Virus record (IMG/VR): IMGVR_UViG_3300029319_000006
Location: 82,763 to 146,762 of that record
Direction: 5' to 3' (one strand)
From: a virus
DNA: 64,000 nucleotides
Shown: positions 17,343 to 63,664 of the stretch, piece by piece
Numbering within the stretch: position 1 is the first letter of the stretch
Layout: each line of letters starts with the position of its first letter
Position numbers and translations under genes: made by a program
The notes under the pieces: model-generated
Seen by the model: only the letters and a program-made list of their open reading frames with translations
Databases searched by the model: none
What the model was told of the DNA's origin: nothing

Positions 17343-18715
17343 GTTGTTAATGGCCTTTCTGCTATTCTACCAATACTAGCTACCACATTATGTCTACTTC
17401 TTGGTATATCTATTATGTGACGTTTAGCTGTCATAATATAATTTCCTGACCTTTTCTCATCATCTAATTTAAAGTTTTCAGGATCAGAATTTAACATTTC
17501 TAATTCTATTTGATGTCCTACACTTACATTAATATTATTCAATGAAAATAATAAACCAGGAACAGTAATAGTATGTGGATTTCTAAACAGATATTTTATA
17601 AAATTATTTTTTATTATTGTTAATCTTTTTGATATTTCTCCTCCATAGTATCCTTCTAAACTAGATTCAGTAAAAGCATTCATGGAAAATGTAAAATATT
17701 TTCTACTAGTATATTCTTCTAATGGATCTGTCTTTAATCCATCTGGATCTGTTGATTCTCTAAATCTAGTATCAATTGGAATAACATTTTGATCTGCAGG
17801 AAGAATACCAATTGCTGCAAGTTTTTCATATTCTTCTTTCATGTTTATTTGAGCATTCATAAACTCACCAGTGTTAACATCAAGATGAGAATAATTAGAA
17901 CCTATGGCTCCAAGTTTTGCCATATCTAAAGTTCTTTCTAATCTACCAGAAGAATAATCACTTACTATTAATGCTTTTTCTTCTGGTGTTAAATCACCAG
18001 TTCCTCCGGCTAATGGTGTAGCTCCAACAGAATATATAAATGGTTTACCTTTATTAAATGGATCTCTTTCTAAAATACTTTCTAAATCAGTAAGTATTCT
18101 TTCTTTATATCCCAAACTACTAAATAAAAAATATGGAAGACCATTTTCAGTATGCATTTTGTTTACTATATTAGAAGCAGCTTCTAATGGTGTCATCCAA
18201 GGAACAATGTATCTTATTTCTGCTCCTTCTGGTTCTTTACAATAATCAGGAACAAGACTTAAATTTAAATTTTCTGCTAATATTTTGGATACAACTTCTT
18301 TAGATGTTCCAGTGTATGATTTACTGATAGGTCTAAGATAACTAAAGTAAGCACAATTTTCTAATATATCTAATTCTAACAGAGAAGTTGTATCATTAAC
18401 TTTTACAGTTCTTCTTATACTTGTAATCATAAATGTTTTTTCAATTAATCCTTCTTGACTTGCAGGATTTTTCAATACAATTTTTACTCTTTCTGTACCA
18501 GACATTTGAGTAATTCTATACAAATCATTATCATCAGCTATAACTAATTTACCAGTTAGGTAAGGTATCATTATATTTTCAAATATATTAAGTTCTACAG
18601 CAGTAGGAGCAGCTGTTTCTTGACCAGCTATATGTAATTTAAGATTGTCTCTAAATCTTTCTGATGAAATTGATATTTCTACAATTTCAATTTGTTCAGC
18701 TGATAATAGTTGCAT
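17339..18715 (-). CDS. Baseplate hub protein, gp27-like
   Basis: LNIFENI..PYLTG.L.I.D, SG.ERV.I, SGNYIMT..RH; position between gp53 and gp5. Confidence 0.7.
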   Translation of the reverse strand: MQLLSAEQIEIVEISISSERFRDNLKLHIAGQETAAPTAVELNIFENIMIPYLTGKLVIADDNDLYRITQMSGTERVKIVLKNPASQEGLIEKTFMITSIRRTVKVNDTTSLLELDILENCAYFSYLRPISKSYTGTSKEVVSKILAENLNLSLVPDYCKEPEGAEIRYIVPWMTPLEAASNIVNKMHTENGLPYFLFSSLGYKERILTDLESILERDPFNKGKPFIYSVGATPLAGGTGDLTPEEKALIVSDYSSGRLERTLDMAKLGAIGSNYSHLDVNTGEFMNAQINMKEEYEKLAAIGILPADQNVIPIDTRFRESTDPDGLKTDPLEEYTSRKYFTFSMNAFTESSLEGYYGGEISKRLTIIKNNFIKYLFRNPHTITVPGLLFSLNNINVSVGHQIELEMLNSDPENFKLDDEKRSGNYIMTAKRHIIDIPRSRHNVVASIGRIAERPLTT

Positions 18716-51214: not shown

Positions 51215-53442
51215 TAGAATGTAATCTCACAGGCACCACCTTGACAAGCAGCTGATCCCATAGTATCTATGTCTGTGAATCTTTTTTCGTCAAGCTGAGA
51301 TACAAAATCTATTGGAGAGATATTTTGTTGAATCTTAGTCCATTTGTGAAGAAGAAATACATCTTTCAAACAATTACCACATTCTTCCATATCATTCATA
51401 AAATAATTATCTGAAAATTTAACAAATCTTCTGATCCATTCTTTATTAAGATCACTTATTTCTCCTCTATGTTCAGGATTCATTTTTGCATACATTATAG
51501 CTTCCCACAAATCTCTAAAACCTGACTTTCTCGTATCTACAATTAATCCAGATGCAAATAGTGCAGCTTTACCATATTTATCTACAATTTGATCTTCAGA
51601 TAATACTTCTGTCATAGGCGCTTGAGCGTAATCTTTATCTCCTGTACCGCCCAAGAAAGAGATTCCAGCAAACGAGTGACGATTTTTGTAAACATAATTT
51701 TCTACCTTTGCCCACATATGAGGCATAACAGTTACAGTGTTAGATACATTGTGTCTTAGAGTTGGATCTGCACATAATTCTATATCTGTTCCTGCTTCTA
51801 CCCAATTTTGCTGGACCAATTTTACTTTTTCTAATAAATCAGTTCCATATAATTCTTCTCTGTATAATGATCCTTCTGGTGTAATAATTGGAAAGCCAAC
51901 ACAGTAATCTGTATTATTAGCAGACCATACACTTTCTTCAACCATGTATGGATTTGTTTTAGCAATTAATTGACCAACTTCGGTTTCTTTGTTTAGCTGA
52001 ATATGTCTTAGATATCTAGGACTATGTTCAGCATGAATTCCACTAGCTGTCTCTAAAAGTACCGAAGCATTACCAGACGGTTTGACACACGTGGTTCTGG
52101 CTGCAGCATTGATTCCAATAAGTGCCGCAACTTCTTTATTAACTTTCTTAACAATTTCTGCTCCTTCTTTTTGAATTTCAGCATTTAAAAGTATCTCTGG
52201 ATTATTCATCCATCCTGTTACAGACACTCCTAACAATGCTTCTCTTTCAAATATCTCTTTTGATGTTTGTTCAAGATATTTGAAATTTGTATATCCAGCT
52301 TGTAATGTTCCCATAATAGAACCAGCTCTACAAGCCTTAAAAAATTCTTCTTTAGATGTACACTTACCACCATTTATCTCAGTTAGATTACATCCTTGCC
52401 ATCCTGTCTTTCCATCTATCTGAGGAAACATTCCTATCTCAACACAAGGATTAGTAGTATGTTCTTTTGACTCAACAAAGTAGAATCCAGGTTCACCAAA
52501 CTCTTTTATTGATTTCATTATATTTTTAAATTCATCTTCTGTACATTCATCTCTAACAATAACAGCACTATTATTGGAACGGCCACGTTGTGGATTATCA
52601 ATAAACCAGTTTCCTGTTTTTGCATCTAACATTTCCTGATCATCTTTTGAAAATAAACATATAGTAGCTGATCTACGAACACCACCAGCTAGTACAGCAT
52701 CTGATGCATGCATTGCAATATCATATACTTCAATTGGTTTTAATGTATCTCTTCCAGATAATACTACAGTCTGTAATAGATGTTCTATTTTATCTAAAGC
52801 TCTTCTTAGTGGTTCTGGTCCAGGTGCTTTGAATCCTCCTGATATCATTGCTCCTTTAGGTCTAATACCACTTATATCAAAATATACTTTACGTCCTGCA
52901 AACTCAGGAAATTGTTGATTGTCTGTAAAGTAAGATGACATTAGCACACCTAATGAATCAGCCCATCCTTCAATACTATCTTCTACTACCCATCCTTTAG
53001 CAGCTTTCTTTCTTTCTGCTACTTTAGGTAATTTGCTAACATGATGATTTTGCACTGAAAACCCTGCACCAGCCCCGCATAGAAGCACGTAGAACAGTTC
53101 ACTAAAGAACCTTGGTCTGTCTGCATAGGTGGAAGTACAATTGTACATTCTCATCATATGTTTTAGGAGTTGATCACCTCCAAATTGTAAAGCTCTCTGA
53201 GCTCCTAATGCATATTTTAATTTGTATAGATGTTCTGCTTCATCTATAAGTTGAGATAAATCTGGAGTCATTTTATCTGCATAATAGTCTCTATGCATAT
53301 TCATAACTCTTGTTACTGATTCTTCCCAAGTTTCATATCTTGCTTTTTTTTCGTCCCACCTGGAATAACCTTCATAGAACTTAGTTTGTGACATTATATT
53401 TCTGGTATCCCAGTCTTTATTATTTGGAACTACTTTTAGCAT
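51214..53442 (-). CDS. nrdJ: Class II (adenosylcobalamin-dependent, monomeric RTPR-type) ribonucleotide reductase
   Basis: YNC, DS.EGW, IRPKGA, GGVRRSA, TNPCVEI, CNL, TTCVKPSG, C-terminal CQGGAC; no beta-subunit gene adjacent. Confidence 0.9.
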   Translation of the reverse strand: MLKVVPNNKDWDTRNIMSQTKFYEGYSRWDEKKARYETWEESVTRVMNMHRDYYADKMTPDLSQLIDEAEHLYKLKYALGAQRALQFGGDQLLKHMMRMYNCTSTYADRPRFFSELFYVLLCGAGAGFSVQNHHVSKLPKVAERKKAAKGWVVEDSIEGWADSLGVLMSSYFTDNQQFPEFAGRKVYFDISGIRPKGAMISGGFKAPGPEPLRRALDKIEHLLQTVVLSGRDTLKPIEVYDIAMHASDAVLAGGVRRSATICLFSKDDQEMLDAKTGNWFIDNPQRGRSNNSAVIVRDECTEDEFKNIMKSIKEFGEPGFYFVESKEHTTNPCVEIGMFPQIDGKTGWQGCNLTEINGGKCTSKEEFFKACRAGSIMGTLQAGYTNFKYLEQTSKEIFEREALLGVSVTGWMNNPEILLNAEIQKEGAEIVKKVNKEVAALIGINAAARTTCVKPSGNASVLLETASGIHAEHSPRYLRHIQLNKETEVGQLIAKTNPYMVEESVWSANNTDYCVGFPIITPEGSLYREELYGTDLLEKVKLVQQNWVEAGTDIELCADPTLRHNVSNTVTVMPHMWAKVENYVYKNRHSFAGISFLGGTGDKDYAQAPMTEVLSEDQIVDKYGKAALFASGLIVDTRKSGFRDLWEAIMYAKMNPEHRGEISDLNKEWIRRFVKFSDNYFMNDMEECGNCLKDVFLLHKWTKIQQNISPIDFVSQLDEKRFTDIDTMGSAACQGGACEITF

Positions 53443-57523: not shown

Positions 57524-57543
57524 ATCAACTACACATATTTATA

Positions 57544-58137
57544 TTACCAAGCCTTACAGGACCAGTATCGTGGTTTTGTTTTAGGGCCAGGATCATCACA
57601 GTTGTGTCTTGCTCTAAAACTTTTTCTTCTTGCTGGTATATTTTTTTTAATTTTCATATTTTTGTCACCAAAATTGACTTTTTTCACATTTCCTGTAGCA
57701 GGATCTTTCACAAAAACTTTTGATTTCTTAACGTCACCAGGCATTGGTTTGTTAAGTTTAACTTCTCTTCCTTGATACTCAGCTTCTTTTATACCAGCTA
57801 ATCTTTTTACTGCATCAATATGAATTTGATGATATGTGTGTCCAGGTAAATCAGCATCAGCAATAGCTTGTTTAGCTGCATTTACTAAATCATCCATATG
57901 TTTTACATTCTCTTCTGTAGCACTACCCTTTTTTTCCAACATTTTCTCATAACCAAGATATTGATCAACAGCTATAACAGCTTCATGGAAACCATCTTTA
58001 TCACCTAAACCATCTTCTTGATTTTGATGAAATGCTTTTAACGCAGATGGACACATATCAAAATGTTTTGTTTTTTCTCCATGATGAACTAATTGTTTTC
58101 CATCAACCTCTTCTTTTATGAATGTTCTAAATTTCAT
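57544..58137 (-). CDS. Probable internal head protein with capsid-targeting-like leader
   Basis: MKFRTFIKEE; C-terminal module EAEYQGREVKLNKP...V.KV.FG...RRKSFRARH.C...YWSC..W. Confidence 0.65.
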   Translation of the reverse strand: MKFRTFIKEEVDGKQLVHHGEKTKHFDMCPSALKAFHQNQEDGLGDKDGFHEAVIAVDQYLGYEKMLEKKGSATEENVKHMDDLVNAAKQAIADADLPGHTYHQIHIDAVKRLAGIKEAEYQGREVKLNKPMPGDVKKSKVFVKDPATGNVKKVNFGDKNMKIKKNIPARRKSFRARHNCDDPGPKTKPRYWSCKAW

Positions 58138-59066
58138 GCTAGATCCTTATCATGGTTTAATGTTCCCTTTTTCTTTTTTGCTATAAATGCATTTACTCTT
58201 GCATGTCCCCATTGTGATGGAGTTGTACCTGGTCTATGACCAGTCTTATGTGCAGCCACACCTCTTTGATATACTTTTTTCAAAGTATTTACAGATATTC
58301 CTGATGCTTTAGACTTATCAGCAAAGCTAGCTTCATCTATATCTTCTTTTGCTTTCTTTTTACCTGATTTCATATTAGCTAACCAGTGAGCCATACGTTG
58401 TTTTTCACCAGAACTATTCTTTGCAGTTTTTCTTAAATCACTTATACTTGCTTTAGTGTCTACACCTGATCTTTTTGCTAGACCTTTTCTTTCTGGATTT
58501 TTTCCATCCTTAAAGTTTTCTCCCATCATATTTCTAACATATGCTGTAAATGGAGAAATTTTGTTACTTTTTTTGCCATCACCTGGAGCTGGACCCTTTT
58601 TTTTATCTTTAAAATGTGCATCACGAGCTTTTTTAGTAGCTACTGACATATCATTTGAATAATATTTTGCTGGTTGAGTACCTTTTCTATCTTTAATATC
58701 AGGATCTTGTCTAACTGATGTAGCTTCTCCTTGAGCTTTTTTAATTTCATCTGGTGTTGGTGCATCCTTATGACCTTTAGGATTCATTGGTTCACCACGT
58801 TGCTGTTTTTGCTTTATATAATACCAAAGACCTTTTTTCTCATTTCTCATAATATCAGATATTTTAGCTCTTTTGATCATATTTGTATGCTTAGTTTTAT
58901 CTCTCTTTTTTTCTTTTTCTATAGATTTTTTAACTCTATCGAATCTACTAGTTGTTTCTTGATTCATTCTTGATAACACAGATATAGCGTGAGTATGCAT
59001 AGGATGATTAGGATTATTAGCTATAGATCTTAATCTTCTTTTGTTCATTAATTCTGGTGTATCCAT
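58134..59066 (-). CDS. Modular basic internal-head-like protein (DUF5824-like C-terminus)
   Basis: KS..SGI....L.KVY.RG.AA..TGHRPG.T..QWG.ARVN.F; several short basic modules separated by xxE sites. Confidence 0.65.
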   Translation of the reverse strand: MDTPELMNKRRLRSIANNPNHPMHTHAISVLSRMNQETTSRFDRVKKSIEKEKKRDKTKHTNMIKRAKISDIMRNEKKGLWYYIKQKQQRGEPMNPKGHKDAPTPDEIKKAQGEATSVRQDPDIKDRKGTQPAKYYSNDMSVATKKARDAHFKDKKKGPAPGDGKKSNKISPFTAYVRNMMGENFKDGKNPERKGLAKRSGVDTKASISDLRKTAKNSSGEKQRMAHWLANMKSGKKKAKEDIDEASFADKSKASGISVNTLKKVYQRGVAAHKTGHRPGTTPSQWGHARVNAFIAKKKKGTLNHDKDLA

Positions 59067-60178
59067 TACACTACCCTCTGTATAAATTTACTAAACTTTG
59101 TTGATTCTTTATTATTTTTCTTCTTTTTATTAATAACAACTGATGCTCTACTTAAACCTTTCTGTCCTGGAGTCATAGATTTCATTAATGCAACTGATTC
59201 AGGTGAACCATAATCAAGTTTGTAATTTTCAGTTGCTTTCTTGGCTACCGCGGTGGCAATAGCCATTTTCTTGTCCATAGGCATGTTTGGATTATCTCTT
59301 TGAATGGCCTTTGCAACTTTCTCCCTTTTCTTTAATTCATTAGGTGTTAGTTTTTTCTCCTCAATCTTTTCAACAGCGTGTAACCATTGTCTTGATTTAT
59401 TGTTAGCCGTTTCAATAATAACATAATTAGAGCCAAGAACACTAATAGTACCAACTTCATCAGTCTTTTTAACTATTACTTGTTCTCCAACTTCAAATAA
59501 GTTACCTTTGATAAATTGTTCCCTTCTATCCGATACTTTTTTTAGTTGTATATGATTCTTGAAGTCTGCCTGTTCTTTTAAACCCATTCCTTTCCGAACA
59601 GCATTAAATAATTGTTTAGCATTTGAGTTAGATACAGCATTAGGTAAACCTTGTGCAAATGTAGTAAAGTTATTATCCTTTGCTGCTTGTCTTTGCTTAG
59701 TTGCTGAAGCTCCAGATGCACCTTCGCCATCAGGATCTCTTTCTCCAGCTGATATAGCATTTATTTTTTCAAAATTATAAAATCCATGTCTAGCTTTTTT
59801 ACCATTATATTTGTTCATAAGAATATCAAATTCATTTACCCTATCAGAACCAACTACCATAACAACTCTTTTGAATCCTTCGTTATATAAAGCAGTCAAC
59901 ACTTCTATAGCTGTTCTTACTTTACTATTAATCATAACAGATCGAGCATGCTTCGGAAACATTTTCCTAACATGCTTAATCTTTTCTTTGTAGTGTAGAG
60001 GGTTTTTTCTTTTATCTTGTGATTGTGAAAGATAAATTCTGTATGGATTACGACCAGATTTAGTAGCTAGTTTATCTAATAATTTTCCATGACCAATAGT
60101 AGGAGGATTCATTCTCCCAAATGTAAAGAAGACCGTCTTCTCTTCTTCGACAAGAAATTGACTAAATCTGTTTATCAT
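59066..60178 (-). CDS. Cytidylyltransferase-like (HxGH) nucleotidyltransferase with capsid-targeting-like leader
   Basis: MINRFSQFLVEE; FTFGRMNPPTIGH.KL; NPL....K; VVGSDR; SAG.RDPD; SATK.R. Confidence 0.85.
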   Translation of the reverse strand: MINRFSQFLVEEEKTVFFTFGRMNPPTIGHGKLLDKLATKSGRNPYRIYLSQSQDKRKNPLHYKEKIKHVRKMFPKHARSVMINSKVRTAIEVLTALYNEGFKRVVMVVGSDRVNEFDILMNKYNGKKARHGFYNFEKINAISAGERDPDGEGASGASATKQRQAAKDNNFTTFAQGLPNAVSNSNAKQLFNAVRKGMGLKEQADFKNHIQLKKVSDRREQFIKGNLFEVGEQVIVKKTDEVGTISVLGSNYVIIETANNKSRQWLHAVEKIEEKKLTPNELKKREKVAKAIQRDNPNMPMDKKMAIATAVAKKATENYKLDYGSPESVALMKSMTPGQKGLSRASVVINKKKKNNKESTKFSKFIQRVV

Positions 60179-60181
60179 AAA

Positions 60182-60589
60182 TTACCCGCTTCGTCTGGCT
60201 ATTGCTGCTTTTCTAATTGATGGTCTTAATTTTTTGGCAAGACGTGTTATACGTGGTGTCATTTTATCAAGACGTTTCTCAATTTCTGCCTTTCTTGCGG
60301 GTGTGAGATCTGCTTTAGAAATACCTTTAGTAAGTTTCTTAGCCATTTGATTTCTGGCTGCTTTTCTAGCTCTTCTATCAACTACCTTAGCACTAGGTGC
60401 TCTTTTCATTGCTTTTTTTCTACCTACTCTTAAACGAGCTTGGTATTTCTTCATTTGACGAGCTTTAGCTCTTCTTTGCATCATATTAAGAGCTTCATTT
60501 ACTGGTTCACATTCACATGGATCACACTGACAGTCTGGTCCACATGGACATGTATCTTCTTTAATAAAGTCTTTAAATCTAAGTACCAT
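60182..60589 (-). CDS. Basic internal-head-like protein with N-terminal Cys cluster
   Basis: Start at 60589 (TAATG overlap): MVLRFKDFIKEDTCPCGPDCQCDPCECEPVNEAL..QR, then an Arg/Lys-rich helix. Confidence 0.7.
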   Translation of the reverse strand: MVLRFKDFIKEDTCPCGPDCQCDPCECEPVNEALNMMQRRAKARQMKKYQARLRVGRKKAMKRAPSAKVVDRRARKAARNQMAKKLTKGISKADLTPARKAEIEKRLDKMTPRITRLAKKLRPSIRKAAIARRSG

Positions 60590-61830
60590 TAATTTCTTCC
60601 CGGTTTGTCCCATCCCTTTAAGATATTAGGTGAAAAGTTGTTATATGAAAATTCCATACGATCAACAATTTTCACCGCATCACCACCAAGTTTATCAATT
60701 GCAACAAAGCCTTCTGCTCCTGTTACTTTAAATCCATTACGAGTTTTAACAAAAGTTTTTACATTACTTAACTTATTAAGAGTATTTATAAGTTTTAATT
60801 TAGCTAATACTATCACTTTTTGAAGGTCAAACATAAACTTCAAAGATGTTTTATTCTTTGCAGAAAAGAATGATAATATTTTATCTAGCTTTTGTTGTTG
60901 TCCAGCTTTTCCTTTATTCGTTTTTCTAGCGTCAATTTCTTTTTGATATCTCTTTGTAATCCAGCTAATGAGGCCAGATACGTGTCTTCCTGTATTTCCA
61001 ATAACTTGTCCTTTTCTGACGTATGTGTTATTATAGGTTTCAATGAGGCCCTGTAACTCTGGCGTTTGCTCCAATTGTCGTAGGGTTGATCCTGCAATTT
61101 TGTTGAACAAAAACCCAGCTTCTGAAAGATATTCATTAACCATCTCCGTATCTTTTTTTGACATAGTTACTTTAGTTAAATCACGAAGCATAGCATCTTG
61201 TGACCAAACTTGTTTTGAGGATTTGAATTGCTTAACATTAACTCCATATGATGCTTTCATTGTATCGAATGTTCTTCCAGTATATGTAGTATGCCAAACA
61301 ATTCCTATTTTAGAAGCCTTTATCATTTTAGCTGCTTCACTCTTCATAGGAACAGCATAAACTATAGTATTAGGATGAAATGTTAAATACTTTTCTCCTT
61401 TTATAACTTCAGATTTTACATCACCAGGACTATATAAAAAATCTCCTTGGACAACACCTTTTATTCCTAATGCTGGTAAATATCTCAAAGCCATTTTTAA
61501 TTTAGCATTAAGTTCACCAGATGTATCATTATCAACATCTGCATTAGTTTTATATACTTTAGGATTCTTATTAAAGATTCCTTTTTTTGCTACAAAAAAT
61601 TTACCATCACCAGGATCAGTACCAGCAAAGATAGCTGGTGCTCCATCCCATTTGACACTAACTGATCCATCATGTACTCCTCTTAACATATCACGTAGTT
61701 CACGTAGAGCTAATATTGCTTGGCGGGTACCTGAGACTCCTCCATAGATTACTTTATCTTCTATGTGAGTCATGTGTGTGTTTTTTTGTTCAGTTATAAA
61801 TTCAGAAAAATTCATCTTATTATCAATCAA
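60589..61830 (-). CDS. DUF6267-like protein with ligase-type covalent nucleotidyltransferase motifs
   Basis: MNFSEFITE leader (start 61815); KNTHM.H.ED; VKWDG (motif I), QGDF (III), EGFV (IV), VKIV (V). Confidence 0.7.
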   Translation of the reverse strand: MIDNKMNFSEFITEQKNTHMTHIEDKVIYGGVSGTRQAILALRELRDMLRGVHDGSVSVKWDGAPAIFAGTDPGDGKFFVAKKGIFNKNPKVYKTNADVDNDTSGELNAKLKMALRYLPALGIKGVVQGDFLYSPGDVKSEVIKGEKYLTFHPNTIVYAVPMKSEAAKMIKASKIGIVWHTTYTGRTFDTMKASYGVNVKQFKSSKQVWSQDAMLRDLTKVTMSKKDTEMVNEYLSEAGFLFNKIAGSTLRQLEQTPELQGLIETYNNTYVRKGQVIGNTGRHVSGLISWITKRYQKEIDARKTNKGKAGQQQKLDKILSFFSAKNKTSLKFMFDLQKVIVLAKLKLINTLNKLSNVKTFVKTRNGFKVTGAEGFVAIDKLGGDAVKIVDRMEFSYNNFSPNILKGWDKPGRN

Positions 61831-62890
61831 ATCTTACTCTAGGTGTAACAGTTACATTAGGCTCAACTCCTAAAAAGTTTATTAAAGAAGATGCTTTACG
61901 TTTCACTCTTGAAATAATATTTGATCCTAACTTTTTTATTTTTTCAAATGCTCTTTTAAAACCACCTTTAGTGAATTCTACTAGTGGATTAATCTGTGTA
62001 GTCTCTTCATCTAAGCTATTAACTATAAGAGATACAACTGACCAGAAATTATACTCTCCAGTTTTTACATTTTTTATTTTTCTTGAAGATGTTTTAAATC
62101 TAGCCTGTAGCTTCATTCGATCAGCTATTTTTGTGCAATAAGCATCATCATAAACTGATTTAATTGAAACTCTAGAACCACTATGATTAGCTACTAACAT
62201 ATATTCTGCTGCAGCATTATTATTTTTTCCAAACTTAATAAAACCAGACATAGCTTCTCTAGCAAAAGCAATCTTAAAGTCTTTATTAGACTCAAATAAT
62301 GAACCAAGAGATTTCATCATTTGCTTATGAGCTTTTTCTCCATCCATAACAACTTTGTTTTTACCTTGTTTTATTAAATCTCTCAATTTACCAGGAGCAA
62401 CAGATGCAGTAACAAATTTATCTAAAATTTCTTTAACTTCTGTTAGTTGAGGTGAGTTTTGTATTTTGCTTTCTTCTAATGCTGCTGCTAATGTTGCTCT
62501 TGTTTCTTCTCTTCCTCCAGACATTAATTGGGCTGTTCCAATTTTTAAAGATAGTCTTTTATTTCCTATTAATATATCTGTCTTAGGAGTCTTATTAGAA
62601 CCTCCATTTTGTTTCCAGAAACTAGAAAGATCAGTCTTAGCTCTACCATATTGTTCAGCTTTTACAAAAGATAATCTAAAATGTTTTTTTACAGCAGCTG
62701 CTATGGCTTCCCCAGATGCTAAAACTTCAGGATGAGAAACTAACATTTTAGCTGTAGCAGCTCCTACTCCTGTCTTTTCAGGATTAAAATTTTGGTTATG
62801 AATTTTATACCAACCTATAACGATAGCAGCTTCGTAATCTTCAGCTTTCAATTTGGCCTCCGTGAGTATATACGATTTAAACCGTTGCAT
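61823..62890 (-). CDS. PD-(D/E)xK nuclease-like protein with capsid-targeting-like leader
   Basis: MQRFKSYILTE; YE helix; TPKTDI......SLK catalytic-like pattern. Confidence 0.55.
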   Translation of the reverse strand: MQRFKSYILTEAKLKAEDYEAAIVIGWYKIHNQNFNPEKTGVGAATAKMLVSHPEVLASGEAIAAAVKKHFRLSFVKAEQYGRAKTDLSSFWKQNGGSNKTPKTDILIGNKRLSLKIGTAQLMSGGREETRATLAAALEESKIQNSPQLTEVKEILDKFVTASVAPGKLRDLIKQGKNKVVMDGEKAHKQMMKSLGSLFESNKDFKIAFAREAMSGFIKFGKNNNAAAEYMLVANHSGSRVSIKSVYDDAYCTKIADRMKLQARFKTSSRKIKNVKTGEYNFWSVVSLIVNSLDEETTQINPLVEFTKGGFKRAFEKIKKLGSNIISRVKRKASSLINFLGVEPNVTVTPRVRFD

Positions 62891-62909: not shown

Positions 62910-62917
62910 TATTTATA
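62910..62917 (-). promoter_or_regulatory. T4-type late promoter TATAAATA heading the internal-protein operon
   Basis: Exact match, intergenic, 19 nt before the ATG at 62890. Confidence 0.7.
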
Positions 62918-62919
62918 TG

Positions 62920-63159
62920 TCAATCTTTTTCTATATAAAGCCTGTTACCATCCTTTTTTACTGAAAATTTGTATTGTTCAAAACCTGAATCTTTTAGATC
63001 TTGATTAAGTACTTTTACCATTTTATCAACATCCATGTAATCTTTACTATTATCCATAATACCTACAAGAGTAGGTTCTTTTATATCATTAATACACTTC
63101 ATTCTATCCTCCAAATTTATAACCAAATTCATCAATCTCTTTTTTACAATAATCTCCAA
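62920..63159 (-). CDS. Hypothetical protein (start uncertain)
   Basis: ORF filling the gap in a contiguous run; GGAGG SD before MKCIND. Confidence 0.55.
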   Translation of the reverse strand: MEIIVKKRLMNLVINLEDRMKCINDIKEPTLVGIMDNSKDYMDVDKMVKVLNQDLKDSGFEQYKFSVKKDGNRLYIEKD

Positions 63160-63664
63160 CTAATTTAATATACTTTTTATCTTTATAATAATCAACATAT
63201 TTTTCATTTTTCACATTAGACACATTAACTTTAAATAATGGAACATCACATTTAGTTCTTCTTTGAACTTCCTTAAAATCTTCTATTAGATTTTCATATC
63301 TTATAACATAATGAACAGCTGTTGTAAACCTTAGTTGGTCACTAGCTGGTATAAGATACTTTCTTCCTTTTGGTCTAGGATGAATATATGACTCAAGTAA
63401 ATATCTTTCAAATGAACAAGTAATTGATTTCTGTCTTACAAAAAATCTATACCAACTTACAGCTCTATCCCAAGGATTTCGTATTACACAAAAAGACCAT
63501 CCAAAGTCATCAAACAAATTATATAATCTTTGTGGAGAATTATGTCTAAGTTCATCAATATAAGCATCACCATTACAATTTCTTACTAACCATTCTTCTA
63601 TAGAAGATCCAGCATTTTTAGCTATATGAAAAAATGTAATATTTAAATCTTCAACTCTTACCAT
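63104..63664 (-). CDS. Sulfotransferase family 2-like protein
   Basis: FFHIAKNAGSSI (5'-PSB), VIRNPWDRAVSWY (3'-PB), RYENL.EDF. Confidence 0.88.
   Translation of the reverse strand: MVRVEDLNITFFHIAKNAGSSIEEWLVRNCNGDAYIDELRHNSPQRLYNLFDDFGWSFCVIRNPWDRAVSWYRFFVRQKSITCSFERYLLESYIHPRPKGRKYLIPASDQLRFTTAVHYVIRYENLIEDFKEVQRRTKCDVPLFKVNVSNVKNEKYVDYYKDKKYIKLVGDYCKKEIDEFGYKFGG

Follow-up and report, generated by a model that had tools for sequence, protein, structure and literature searches.

Putative T4-like capsid-targeting leaders on a predicted RNA-ligase-type protein and its linked nucleotidyltransferase in a marine myovirus

The 64-kb stretch of DNA analyzed here (the window) is the right-hand part of a 146.8-kb viral contig (IMG/VR record IMGVR_UViG_3300029319_000006, contig positions 82763–146762), ∼84% complete and 28–35% in G+C, whose source is a T4-like marine myovirus. 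Close to its right end lies a minus-strand gene cluster in which a protein of the DUF6267 family and a TxGH nucleotidyltransferase are encoded near each other, both behind short N-terminal leaders that match the capsid-targeting sequence (CTS) of T4 internal head proteins. On balance, we read this gene cluster as the enzymatic core of a late-transcribed, capsid-internal cargo locus, with what looks like an end-healing and sealing pair at its center. That the conserved pair and a variable set of additional proteins are directed into the head by their CTS leaders, trimmed by a gp21-type protease and ejected together is, in our estimate, probable.

The cluster and its landmarks are as follows (window positions):

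62910–62917, minus strand: T4-type late promoter TATAAATA, an exact match, 20 nucleotides upstream of the cluster's first gene.
61823–62890, minus strand: open reading frame (ORF) for a 355-amino-acid protein, endonuclease-like with an MspI/HinP1I fold by predicted structure; leader MQRFKSYILTE at 62858–62890, D105...S114-x-K116 at 62543–62578, L-V-E305 at 61976–61984.
60589–61815, minus strand: DUF6267 protein, 408 amino acids from the ATG at 61815 (PF19782, E 2e-102); leader MNFSEFITE at 61789–61815, motif I KWDG at 61642–61653, motifs IV–V EGFVA...VKIVDR at 60658–60714.
60182–60589 (open frame 60182–60613), minus strand: 135-amino-acid protein from the ATG at 60589; leader MVLRFKDFIKE at 60557–60589.
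59066–60178, minus strand: 370-amino-acid CTP_transf_like (T/H)xGH nucleotidyltransferase, catalytic domain at residues ∼12–200, then appended modules; leader MINRFSQFLVE at 60146–60178, GRMNPPTIGH at 60089–60118, SATKQR at 59690–59707, G-L-K-E at 59573–59584.
58134–59066, minus strand: basic protein of 310 amino acids, DUF5824 domain at its C-terminus (PF19141, E 6e-15); own leader absent.
57544–58137, minus strand: 197-amino-acid protein, encoded by the final gene of the cluster that has a leader (phrog_7595, E 5e-13); leader MKFRTFIKE at 58111–58137.
57536–57543: second copy of the late promoter TATAAATA, past the last leader-bearing gene.

A first-pass annotation made from the sequence had described a head-packaged enzyme trio here, and its three ORFs (those for the 355-amino-acid, DUF6267 and 370-amino-acid proteins) are indeed present on the minus strand at the positions it gave. 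The DUF6267 ORF (60589–61830) spans 413 amino acids when read from a TTG; initiation at the ATG yields the 408-residue form, which places the leader at the N-terminus. The 135-amino-acid protein, a CxC-rich stretch followed by a strongly basic C-terminal domain, was absent from that annotation. The 197-amino-acid protein, which is found again at related loci, has a conserved basic, Cys-containing C-terminal module, and the DUF5824 protein occurs in relatives either fused to the nucleotidyltransferase or as a separate, leader-bearing gene.

In T4, the first ten residues suffice for encapsidation, with residues 4 and 7 responsible for targeting and residues 8 and 10 directing processing by gp21, which cleaves after L/I-x-E (PMC9026906). 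The T4 leaders, as read from NC_000866, are MKTYQEFIAE in IPII and IPIII and MKTFKEFTST in IPI. All five leaders of the cluster share one spacing (aromatic, two residues, aromatic, Ile/Leu, one residue, Glu) within a length of 9–11 residues, and contain the T4-type targeting and processing residues in a register shifted by one or two positions. When ORFs of at least 100 amino acids were counted across the 146.8-kb contig, five carried the pattern aromatic-x-x-aromatic-[ILV]-x-E at residues 2–7, against ∼0.45 expected (binomial P ∼1e-4). These five form one contiguous group, at 57.5–62.9 kb of the window; the capsid-targeting-like leaders proposed earlier for the three enzyme-like proteins are borne out. 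Similar leaders (such as MKSFKQYLVE and MKSFKEFTTT) begin nearly all DUF6267, nucleotidyltransferase, small basic and separate DUF5824 genes in a sample of 80 related viral contigs (loci L003–L082), where seeming exceptions regain a leader if translation starts at a TTG.

The contig also encodes a gp21-type prohead protease (Peptidase_S77, PF03420, E 1.5e-41; contig positions 52532–52987). L-x-E sites occur at the borders between folded domains and basic tails, and may serve as internal cleavage points for this protease: the conserved G-L-K-E at the end of the catalytic domain of the nucleotidyltransferase is a possible site, and the invariant L-V-E305 between fold and tail of the 355-amino-acid protein could be a second site in that protein. 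Outside the window, a small minus-strand ORF with the CTS-like leader MGAFKNFLKE lies at contig positions 17757–18005, directly after a TATAAATA at 18037; it may encode a further internal or head-core protein.

Published proteomics place homologues of the nucleotidyltransferase in virions. The S-SM1 ‘cytidylyltransferase’ of cluster T4-GC190 shares 41% identity with the 370-amino-acid protein (E 1e-54), starts with a clear leader (MKKFSAFLNE) and follows the S-SM1 DUF6267 gene (T4-GC71). Both families are core genes of T4-like cyanophages, and T4-GC190 was detected in purified S-SM1 virions, not in those of S-PM2 (PMC3037559). A cytidylyltransferase was likewise detected in S-CREM2 virions, and cytidyltransferases are frequent in cyanophage virion proteomes, although the authors caution that carry-over may occur (PMC10665884). 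In the S-PM2 record (AJ630128, 6992–8771), the DUF6267 gene is annotated as two pieces, but its reading frame continues into a cytidylyltransferase domain, giving one leaderless protein that agrees with a 591-amino-acid UniProt entry found by fold search. That this fusion has no leader is in keeping with its not having been detected in S-PM2 virions. In the few cases at hand, then, presence of the tag appears to go with detection in virions, and this is the best present support for the working of the tag in this phage group. The T4-GC190 proteins (S-SM1, S-PM2, S-CREM2) belong to the family of the 370-amino-acid protein (∼40% identity), follow DUF6267 directly, were detected in virions of S-SM1 and S-CREM2 and, in S-SM1, have a leader of the same kind; published work, as far as the literature searched shows, goes no further than a possible NMNAT role and is silent on the leader, on the ligase fold of the neighboring protein and on the fusions described below. 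As for the earlier view that the enzymes are packaged, the gp21-type protease and the virion-borne homologues of the 370-amino-acid protein speak for it, but packaging cannot be the invariable rule, as the S-SM1 DUF6267 protein has no leader and is unflagged as a virion protein in the published gene-cluster table (PMC3037559).

DUF6267 and the nucleotidyltransferase are tightly linked. In the 80-contig sample, a nucleotidyltransferase gene is found no more than 3 kb downstream of DUF6267 at 50 of the 52 loci counted, and a small basic gene family stands between the two in 40 of those 52. The position upstream of DUF6267, by comparison, is a hypervariable slot, whose occupants over 73 loci belong to 25 or more unrelated families; roughly one third of the occupants are leader-bearing, and none of ten leader-bearing slot proteins tested against Pfam matched a family. 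T-even phages have hyperplastic internal-protein loci, which this variable slot resembles. The 355-amino-acid nuclease-like protein is one occupant. Seen from the nuclease, DUF6267 is the direct neighbor in 57 of 63 loci and in the same cluster in the other six (63/63), and the trio recurs in the order of the window in the isolates Melnitz and HTVC008M; seen from DUF6267, a nuclease adjoins in only 3 of 65 loci. We therefore reject the notion of a fixed, singly conserved three-gene system, as the trio had first been presented, and the nuclease is, to judge from gene order, an optional accessory cargo. What stands of the proposed linkage is the association of DUF6267 with the nucleotidyltransferase, which includes fusions in both orders.

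These fusions comprise DUF6267 followed by the transferase, the transferase followed by DUF6267, and DUF6267 joined to CTP_transf_like and DUF5824 domains. Relatives also show a P-loop kinase of the Zeta-toxin/AAA_33 type fused to either partner. At locus L040 (5957–8206), a CTS leader is followed by the kinase and DUF6267 in one chain, and at locus L051 (6870–9062) the kinase stands between the nucleotidyltransferase and DUF5824; searched against the PDB, the kinase found as best matches shikimate kinase and zeta toxin at E 0.3–0.6, which does not type it. Further fusion partners of the nucleotidyltransferase are PAP2, Pol-beta nucleotidyltransferase, glucosaminidase and linker-histone-like modules.

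Nearest to the DUF6267 protein of the window is that of phage C48C1 (Kyanoviridae), at 65% identity; then come those of Stenotrophomonas phage DLP6, Methylophilales phage Melnitz (47%) and Pelagibacter phage HTVC008M (40%), and after these the proteins of several hundred cyanomyoviruses. The family is abundant (>8000 close sequences, forming 2580 clusters at 50% identity), and a literature search for DUF6267, or for ‘cytitidyltransferase’ together with cyanophage, found no publication. Its member in the window contains motifs I, III, IV and V of covalent nucleotidyltransferases, conserved and in the canonical order: KWDG (residues 55–58 of the 408-residue form), QGD (123–125), EGFV (368–371) and VKIV (381–384), with K55, D57, G58, D125, E368, G369 and K382 invariant in 85 relatives of 34–61% identity. 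An AlphaFold2 (AF2) model of high confidence (predicted local distance difference test, pLDDT, 94; predicted template modeling score, pTM, 0.91) places these motifs on the β-strands of a β-rich domain that is split by a helical domain of ∼130 residues (220–347). Only ∼25 residues remain after motif V, so the protein has no OB domain; on this point, as on the motifs and their order, translation and model both agree with the first-pass annotation.

Structure comparison is consistent, if modestly so, with a ligase-type fold. With VIA-align, a tool that itself calls Z scores below 8 ambiguous and possibly just a common arrangement, the model aligned with the Naegleria RNA ligase NgrRnl (Z 7.9), TbREL1 (7.8), Trl1 (7.5 and 7.3), T4 Rnl2 (7.1), T4 Rnl1 (6.7), archaeal Rnl3 (6.6) and DNA ligases (5.3–6.3). 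Long alignments (156–206 residues) were almost all with ligases, which make up ∼17 of the 50 best entries. In BFVD, a library of viral structures, the first named match outside the family is a phage RNA ligase (prob 0.98, E 4e-3), with further RNA ligases and a capping enzyme below it. The ligase-like fold suggested at the outset is modestly supported by both comparisons, the RNA ligases lying at Z 6.5–7.9. At the sequence level, the motif IV–V block EGFVAIDKLGGDAVKIV resembles EGYVAVMKDGSHFKIK of T4 Rnl1, with a spacing of 14 vs. 13 residues, and 4 of the 85 relatives match PF09511 (best E 6e-4). An hhalign comparison of the DUF6267 alignment with T4 Rnl1 alone gave nothing relevant. We do not claim membership of the Rnl1 family (PF09511), and call the protein RNA-ligase-like instead, because profile–profile comparison fails to establish homology; in its working, DUF6267 is predicted to be an RNA-ligase-type covalent nucleotidyltransferase.

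In common with Rnl1 and the Trl1 ligase domain (PF09511) and with the nick-sealing RNA ligases Rnl2, TbREL1 and NgrRnl, DUF6267 has motifs I (KxDG), III, IV (EG[FY]VA) and V in like order, a similar IV–V spacing and no OB domain, and some relatives have a fused P-loop kinase, as does Trl1. It differs from these ligases in lying below the Pfam threshold, in the ∼130-residue helical insert between motifs IIIa and IV, in a conserved N-terminal H-x-x-H-x-E-D, in a motif V with one Lys plus Arg, and in its capsid tag. Residues 241–318 of the helical insert align with three structures of YqeY, a GatB-tail-like protein from a tRNA-binding domain family, at Z 6.2–6.9; for a helical bundle this is a weak likeness, to be taken as a lead from the model.

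The 370-amino-acid protein matches PF01467 (CTP_transf_like; E 6.4e-6, 26.8 bits against a cut-off of 21) and phrog_395 ‘cytidyltransferase’ (E 1e-66). Invariant in 36 relatives are G-R-x-N-P-P-T-x-G-H, GSDR, SAGxRDPD and S-A-[ST]-K-x-R. The signature GRMNPPTIGH (residues 21–30) and the CTP_transf_like assignment are as first described, but the class does not fit HxGH in the strict sense, the first His being replaced by an invariant Thr. After the conserved G-L-K-E, the protein continues with an SH3-like module and then basic modules. By its motifs, it is assigned as a TxGH nucleotidyltransferase of the superfamily that includes nicotinamide mononucleotide (NMN) adenylyltransferase (NMNAT) and phosphopantetheine adenylyltransferase (PPAT). 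It shares with NadM/NadR and CoaD the motif G-x-F-x-P-x-(H/T)-x-G-H, a C-terminal S-x-[ST]-x-x-R and a Rossmann-type domain of ∼190 residues; the Arg after Gly is as in NadM/NadR, the Thr for the first His as in CoaD. It differs from them in having the extra conserved GSDR and SAGxRDPD and no significant match to solved members. In a PDB profile search NMNAT appeared at a non-significant E of 0.43, and hhalign aligned nothing beyond the motif with either NadR (E 0.0065) or CoaD (E 0.0032) of E. coli. NCBIfam gave a sub-threshold domain match only, and an ESM Atlas search returned viral clusters only.

For the 355-amino-acid protein, no Pfam family was matched, and PDB searches with single sequences and family profiles gave nothing usable for this or either of the other two enzyme-like proteins. 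Its AF2 model (pLDDT 76, pTM 0.72) is well predicted in the core, whereas the basic tail is disordered. MspI and HinP1I head the Foldseek ranking (MspI E 2e-3, prob 0.99), and VIA-align gave HinP1I at Z 10.1 (184 residues aligned, root mean square deviation 3.5), MspI at 9.6 and HhaI at 6.2, with the best unrelated structure at 5.1. As modeled, the core is a PD-(D/E)xK fold of the MspI/HinP1I restriction-endonuclease type. Residues E17, D18, E20, E79, D105, S114, K116 and E305 are invariant in 56 relatives. The PKTD...SLK motif, read earlier as PD-(D/E)xK, thus keeps its fold and its invariant Asp and Lys, but not the middle acid: D105-x8-S-L-K116 is a D...SxK variant with an invariant Ser114 in that place. 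In the model, D105 is at the start of a strand, S114-x-K116 is on the next, and E17/D18/E20 form an acidic cluster within the first helix. MspI has the catalytic motif D...NxK, and HinP1I has D...QxK plus an acid from the N-terminal helix. The likeness to MspI, HinP1I and HhaI covers the whole domain and may extend to the variant catalytic motif and the invariant acids in the first helix; the differences are an identity of only 13%, the absence of an adjoining methyltransferase, and the added helical insertion, capsid leader and basic tail. Palindrome counts are uninformative on the specificity of the nuclease, because GCGC and CCGG are avoided no more than general CpG depletion would have it.

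From the genes, we infer the following course for this phage's own proteins, covering their packaging, cleavage, ejection and substrates alike. The leader would dock each protein into the prohead core, where the gp21-type protease would cut after the leader Glu and probably also at the conserved L-x-E domain ends. The mature proteins, aided by their basic tails, would remain with the packed DNA and enter the host with it, ahead of any phage gene expression. There DUF6267, with its Rnl1/Trl1/Rnl2-like fold, would form a Lys55–nucleoside monophosphate (NMP) intermediate and seal or nucleotidylate a polynucleotide 5′-phosphate end, most likely of RNA, with the TxGH nucleotidyltransferase making or regenerating a nucleotide-linked cofactor or substrate. 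In some relatives, a Zeta-toxin/AAA_33 kinase, a PAP2 phosphatase or a Pol-beta nucleotidyltransferase would complete an injected end-healing and sealing kit around the pair.

What the pair might repair is a more tentative matter. End repair of polynucleotides, probably RNA or tRNA, is a possible job, which we put forward with reserve; it is favored because of the RNA-ligase-type fold, the recurring kinase, phosphatase and Pol-beta modules, and the precedent of T4 Pnkp and Rnl1, which counter an anticodon nuclease. Going further, one might suppose that the most abundant marine myoviruses (relatives of pelagiphages, OM43 phages and cyanophages) inject an RNA end-repair kit that neutralizes anticodon-nuclease or other RNA-cleaving defenses ahead of the first phage gene expression, a proposal that we regard as speculative and rather unlikely as it stands. 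The parts of such a kit would be the Rnl1/Trl1-like ligase with its tRNA-binding-like helical insert, the TxGH enzyme as supplier or recycler of its nucleotide cofactor and, in some lineages, the kinase, phosphatase and Pol-beta transferase.

Several observations weigh against an injected end-healing and sealing pair. All ligase-fold Z scores of DUF6267 fall within the range that VIA-align calls ambiguous. In the Foldseek check proposed earlier, the DUF6267 model matched nothing in the PDB at E ≤ 1e-3, the weaker rows containing DNA and RNA ligases amid carbonic-anhydrase noise. The DUF6267 protein of the window does not match PF09511 at E ≤ 10, and hhalign against a 13-member phage Rnl1 alignment aligned the motif IV–V block only (E 0.014, probability 3%). 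For its partner, neither the PDB profile search nor hhalign separated the NMNAT from the PPAT subfamily. So many module types share one tagged chain that part of the fusions may represent polyproteins, to be cleaved into separate proteins within the head; fusion may then reflect packaging and not shared chemistry, which weakens the step from fusion to a common pathway. The 310-amino-acid DUF5824 protein is leaderless in this phage, and virion detection pertains to cyanophage homologues, at one remove from this phage and its closest isolates. Finally, cyanophage DUF6267 has no leader, has replication genes as its neighbors and went undetected in virions, so its core function needs no injection.

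This last point is the starting point of an alternative, in which the pair is an intracellular replication or repair module: DUF6267 would be a nick-sealing polynucleotide ligase, possibly NAD+-dependent, an NMNAT-like enzyme would recycle NMN to NAD+, and packaging would be incidental or absent. In S-PM2 and S-SM1 the pair is set beside gp43, gp41, mazG and nrd genes; this setting, the leaderless S-PM2 fusion, and the presence of GC71, which bears no virion-protein flag, in each of the 16 listed cyanophages (PMC3037559) are in keeping with such a module, as are the GRF-x-P...GH motif recalling NadM/NadR and the NMNAT label that JGI gives some relatives. The contig gave no match to a DNA ligase family of the ATP or NAD type, an absence of limited weight at ∼84% completeness, and gp30 is among the quasi-core genes missing from some marine cyanophages (PMC2993671). 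Stenotrophomonas phage DLP6, however, encodes a gp30 DNA ligase as well as DUF6267 and the cytidylyltransferase, and DUF6267 as a plain substitute for a missing gp30 is rejected on that ground. The best structural matches, moreover, are RNA ligases, the DUF6267 model has no OB or other DNA-clamping domain, the genes of the cluster here (the 310-amino-acid DUF5824 protein excepted) are leader-bearing and follow a late promoter, and GC190 is found in virions; we consider the intracellular module improbable. A different alternative keeps injection and has the TxGH enzyme act as an NMNAT that supplies NAD+, or another dinucleotide cofactor, against NAD-depleting defenses, partnered in some lineages by a NadR-like or AvrRxo1-like P-loop kinase, with DUF6267 as unrelated co-cargo. 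PF01467 membership, the Arg-containing GRF-x-P motif and the kinase fused downstream in many relatives, which recalls the NMNAT-plus-kinase layout of NadR, fit this proposal, and NMNAT homology of the cyanophage protein has been speculated upon (PMC10665884). Yet the invariant Thr in place of the first His is as in PPAT, the NMNAT match in the PDB profile search is non-significant and those to NadR and CoaD are equally weak and confined to the motif, after cleavage of the nicotinamide bond an NMNAT by itself could not restore NAD+, and the near-obligate linkage and fusions with DUF6267 would go unexplained; this account seems to us more doubtful still. Least of all do we expect the proteins to be structural or DNA-condensing components of the head core whose enzyme-like domains are inactive relics: long Lys/Arg-rich tails and attached DUF5824 and linker-histone-like modules, together with the small, basic, DNA-associated nature of T4 internal proteins, would suit that role, but the predicted catalytic residues are invariant across relatives of 34–60% identity in all three families, and both conserved enzyme families are cyanophage core genes (PMC3037559), which makes it very improbable.

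If the locus is indeed one for capsid-internal cargo, its nearest model is the set of T4 internal proteins IPI, IPII, IPIII and Alt, which bear a CTS, undergo processing by gp21 and are ejected along with the DNA. It resembles these in the leader of ∼10 residues (in T4, positions 4 and 7 are aromatic, position 8 is Ile/Leu and position 10 is Glu), in the gp21-family protease, in late expression and in the placing of unrelated cargo behind a constant tag in a hypervariable locus; Alt is, in addition, a precedent for enzyme cargo. It differs in what is carried, a ligase-fold protein, a (T/H)xGH transferase and a restriction-endonuclease-fold protein, whose mature parts have no sequence homology with the T4 proteins and which are known here from their genes alone. 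To our knowledge, no enzyme with a ligase, (T/H)xGH or restriction-endonuclease fold is known as T4 head cargo.

Some further features of the window and contig may be recorded. Just upstream of the cluster, at 63104–63664 (minus strand), is a sulfotransferase-family ORF (PF03567, E 8e-7; galactose-3-O-sulfotransferase in PHROG). No tRNA genes were found in the 64-kb window. In the whole 146.8-kb contig there are 0 copies of the HindIII site AAGCTT, where ∼31 would be expected, and a single copy of TCATGA, where ∼28 would be; CATG and CTAG are under-represented, and CpG-containing tetramers are 3–10 times rarer than base composition predicts. The scarcity of the HindIII site and TCATGA, together with the rarity of CpG, suggests restriction avoidance combined with general CpG depletion.

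The RNA-ligase-type fold, the tag in many lineages and its agreement with proteomics would make the function of two large protein families testable. The leader offers a simple sequence rule by which injected proteins of uncultured marine phages may be predicted, and the variable slot upstream of DUF6267, as a pool of putative injected proteins, probably holds many counter-defense candidates. Should the pair and its associated modules prove to be an injected RNA end-repair kit, it would correspond to the Pnkp/Rnl1 pathway of T4, but be carried in the virion.

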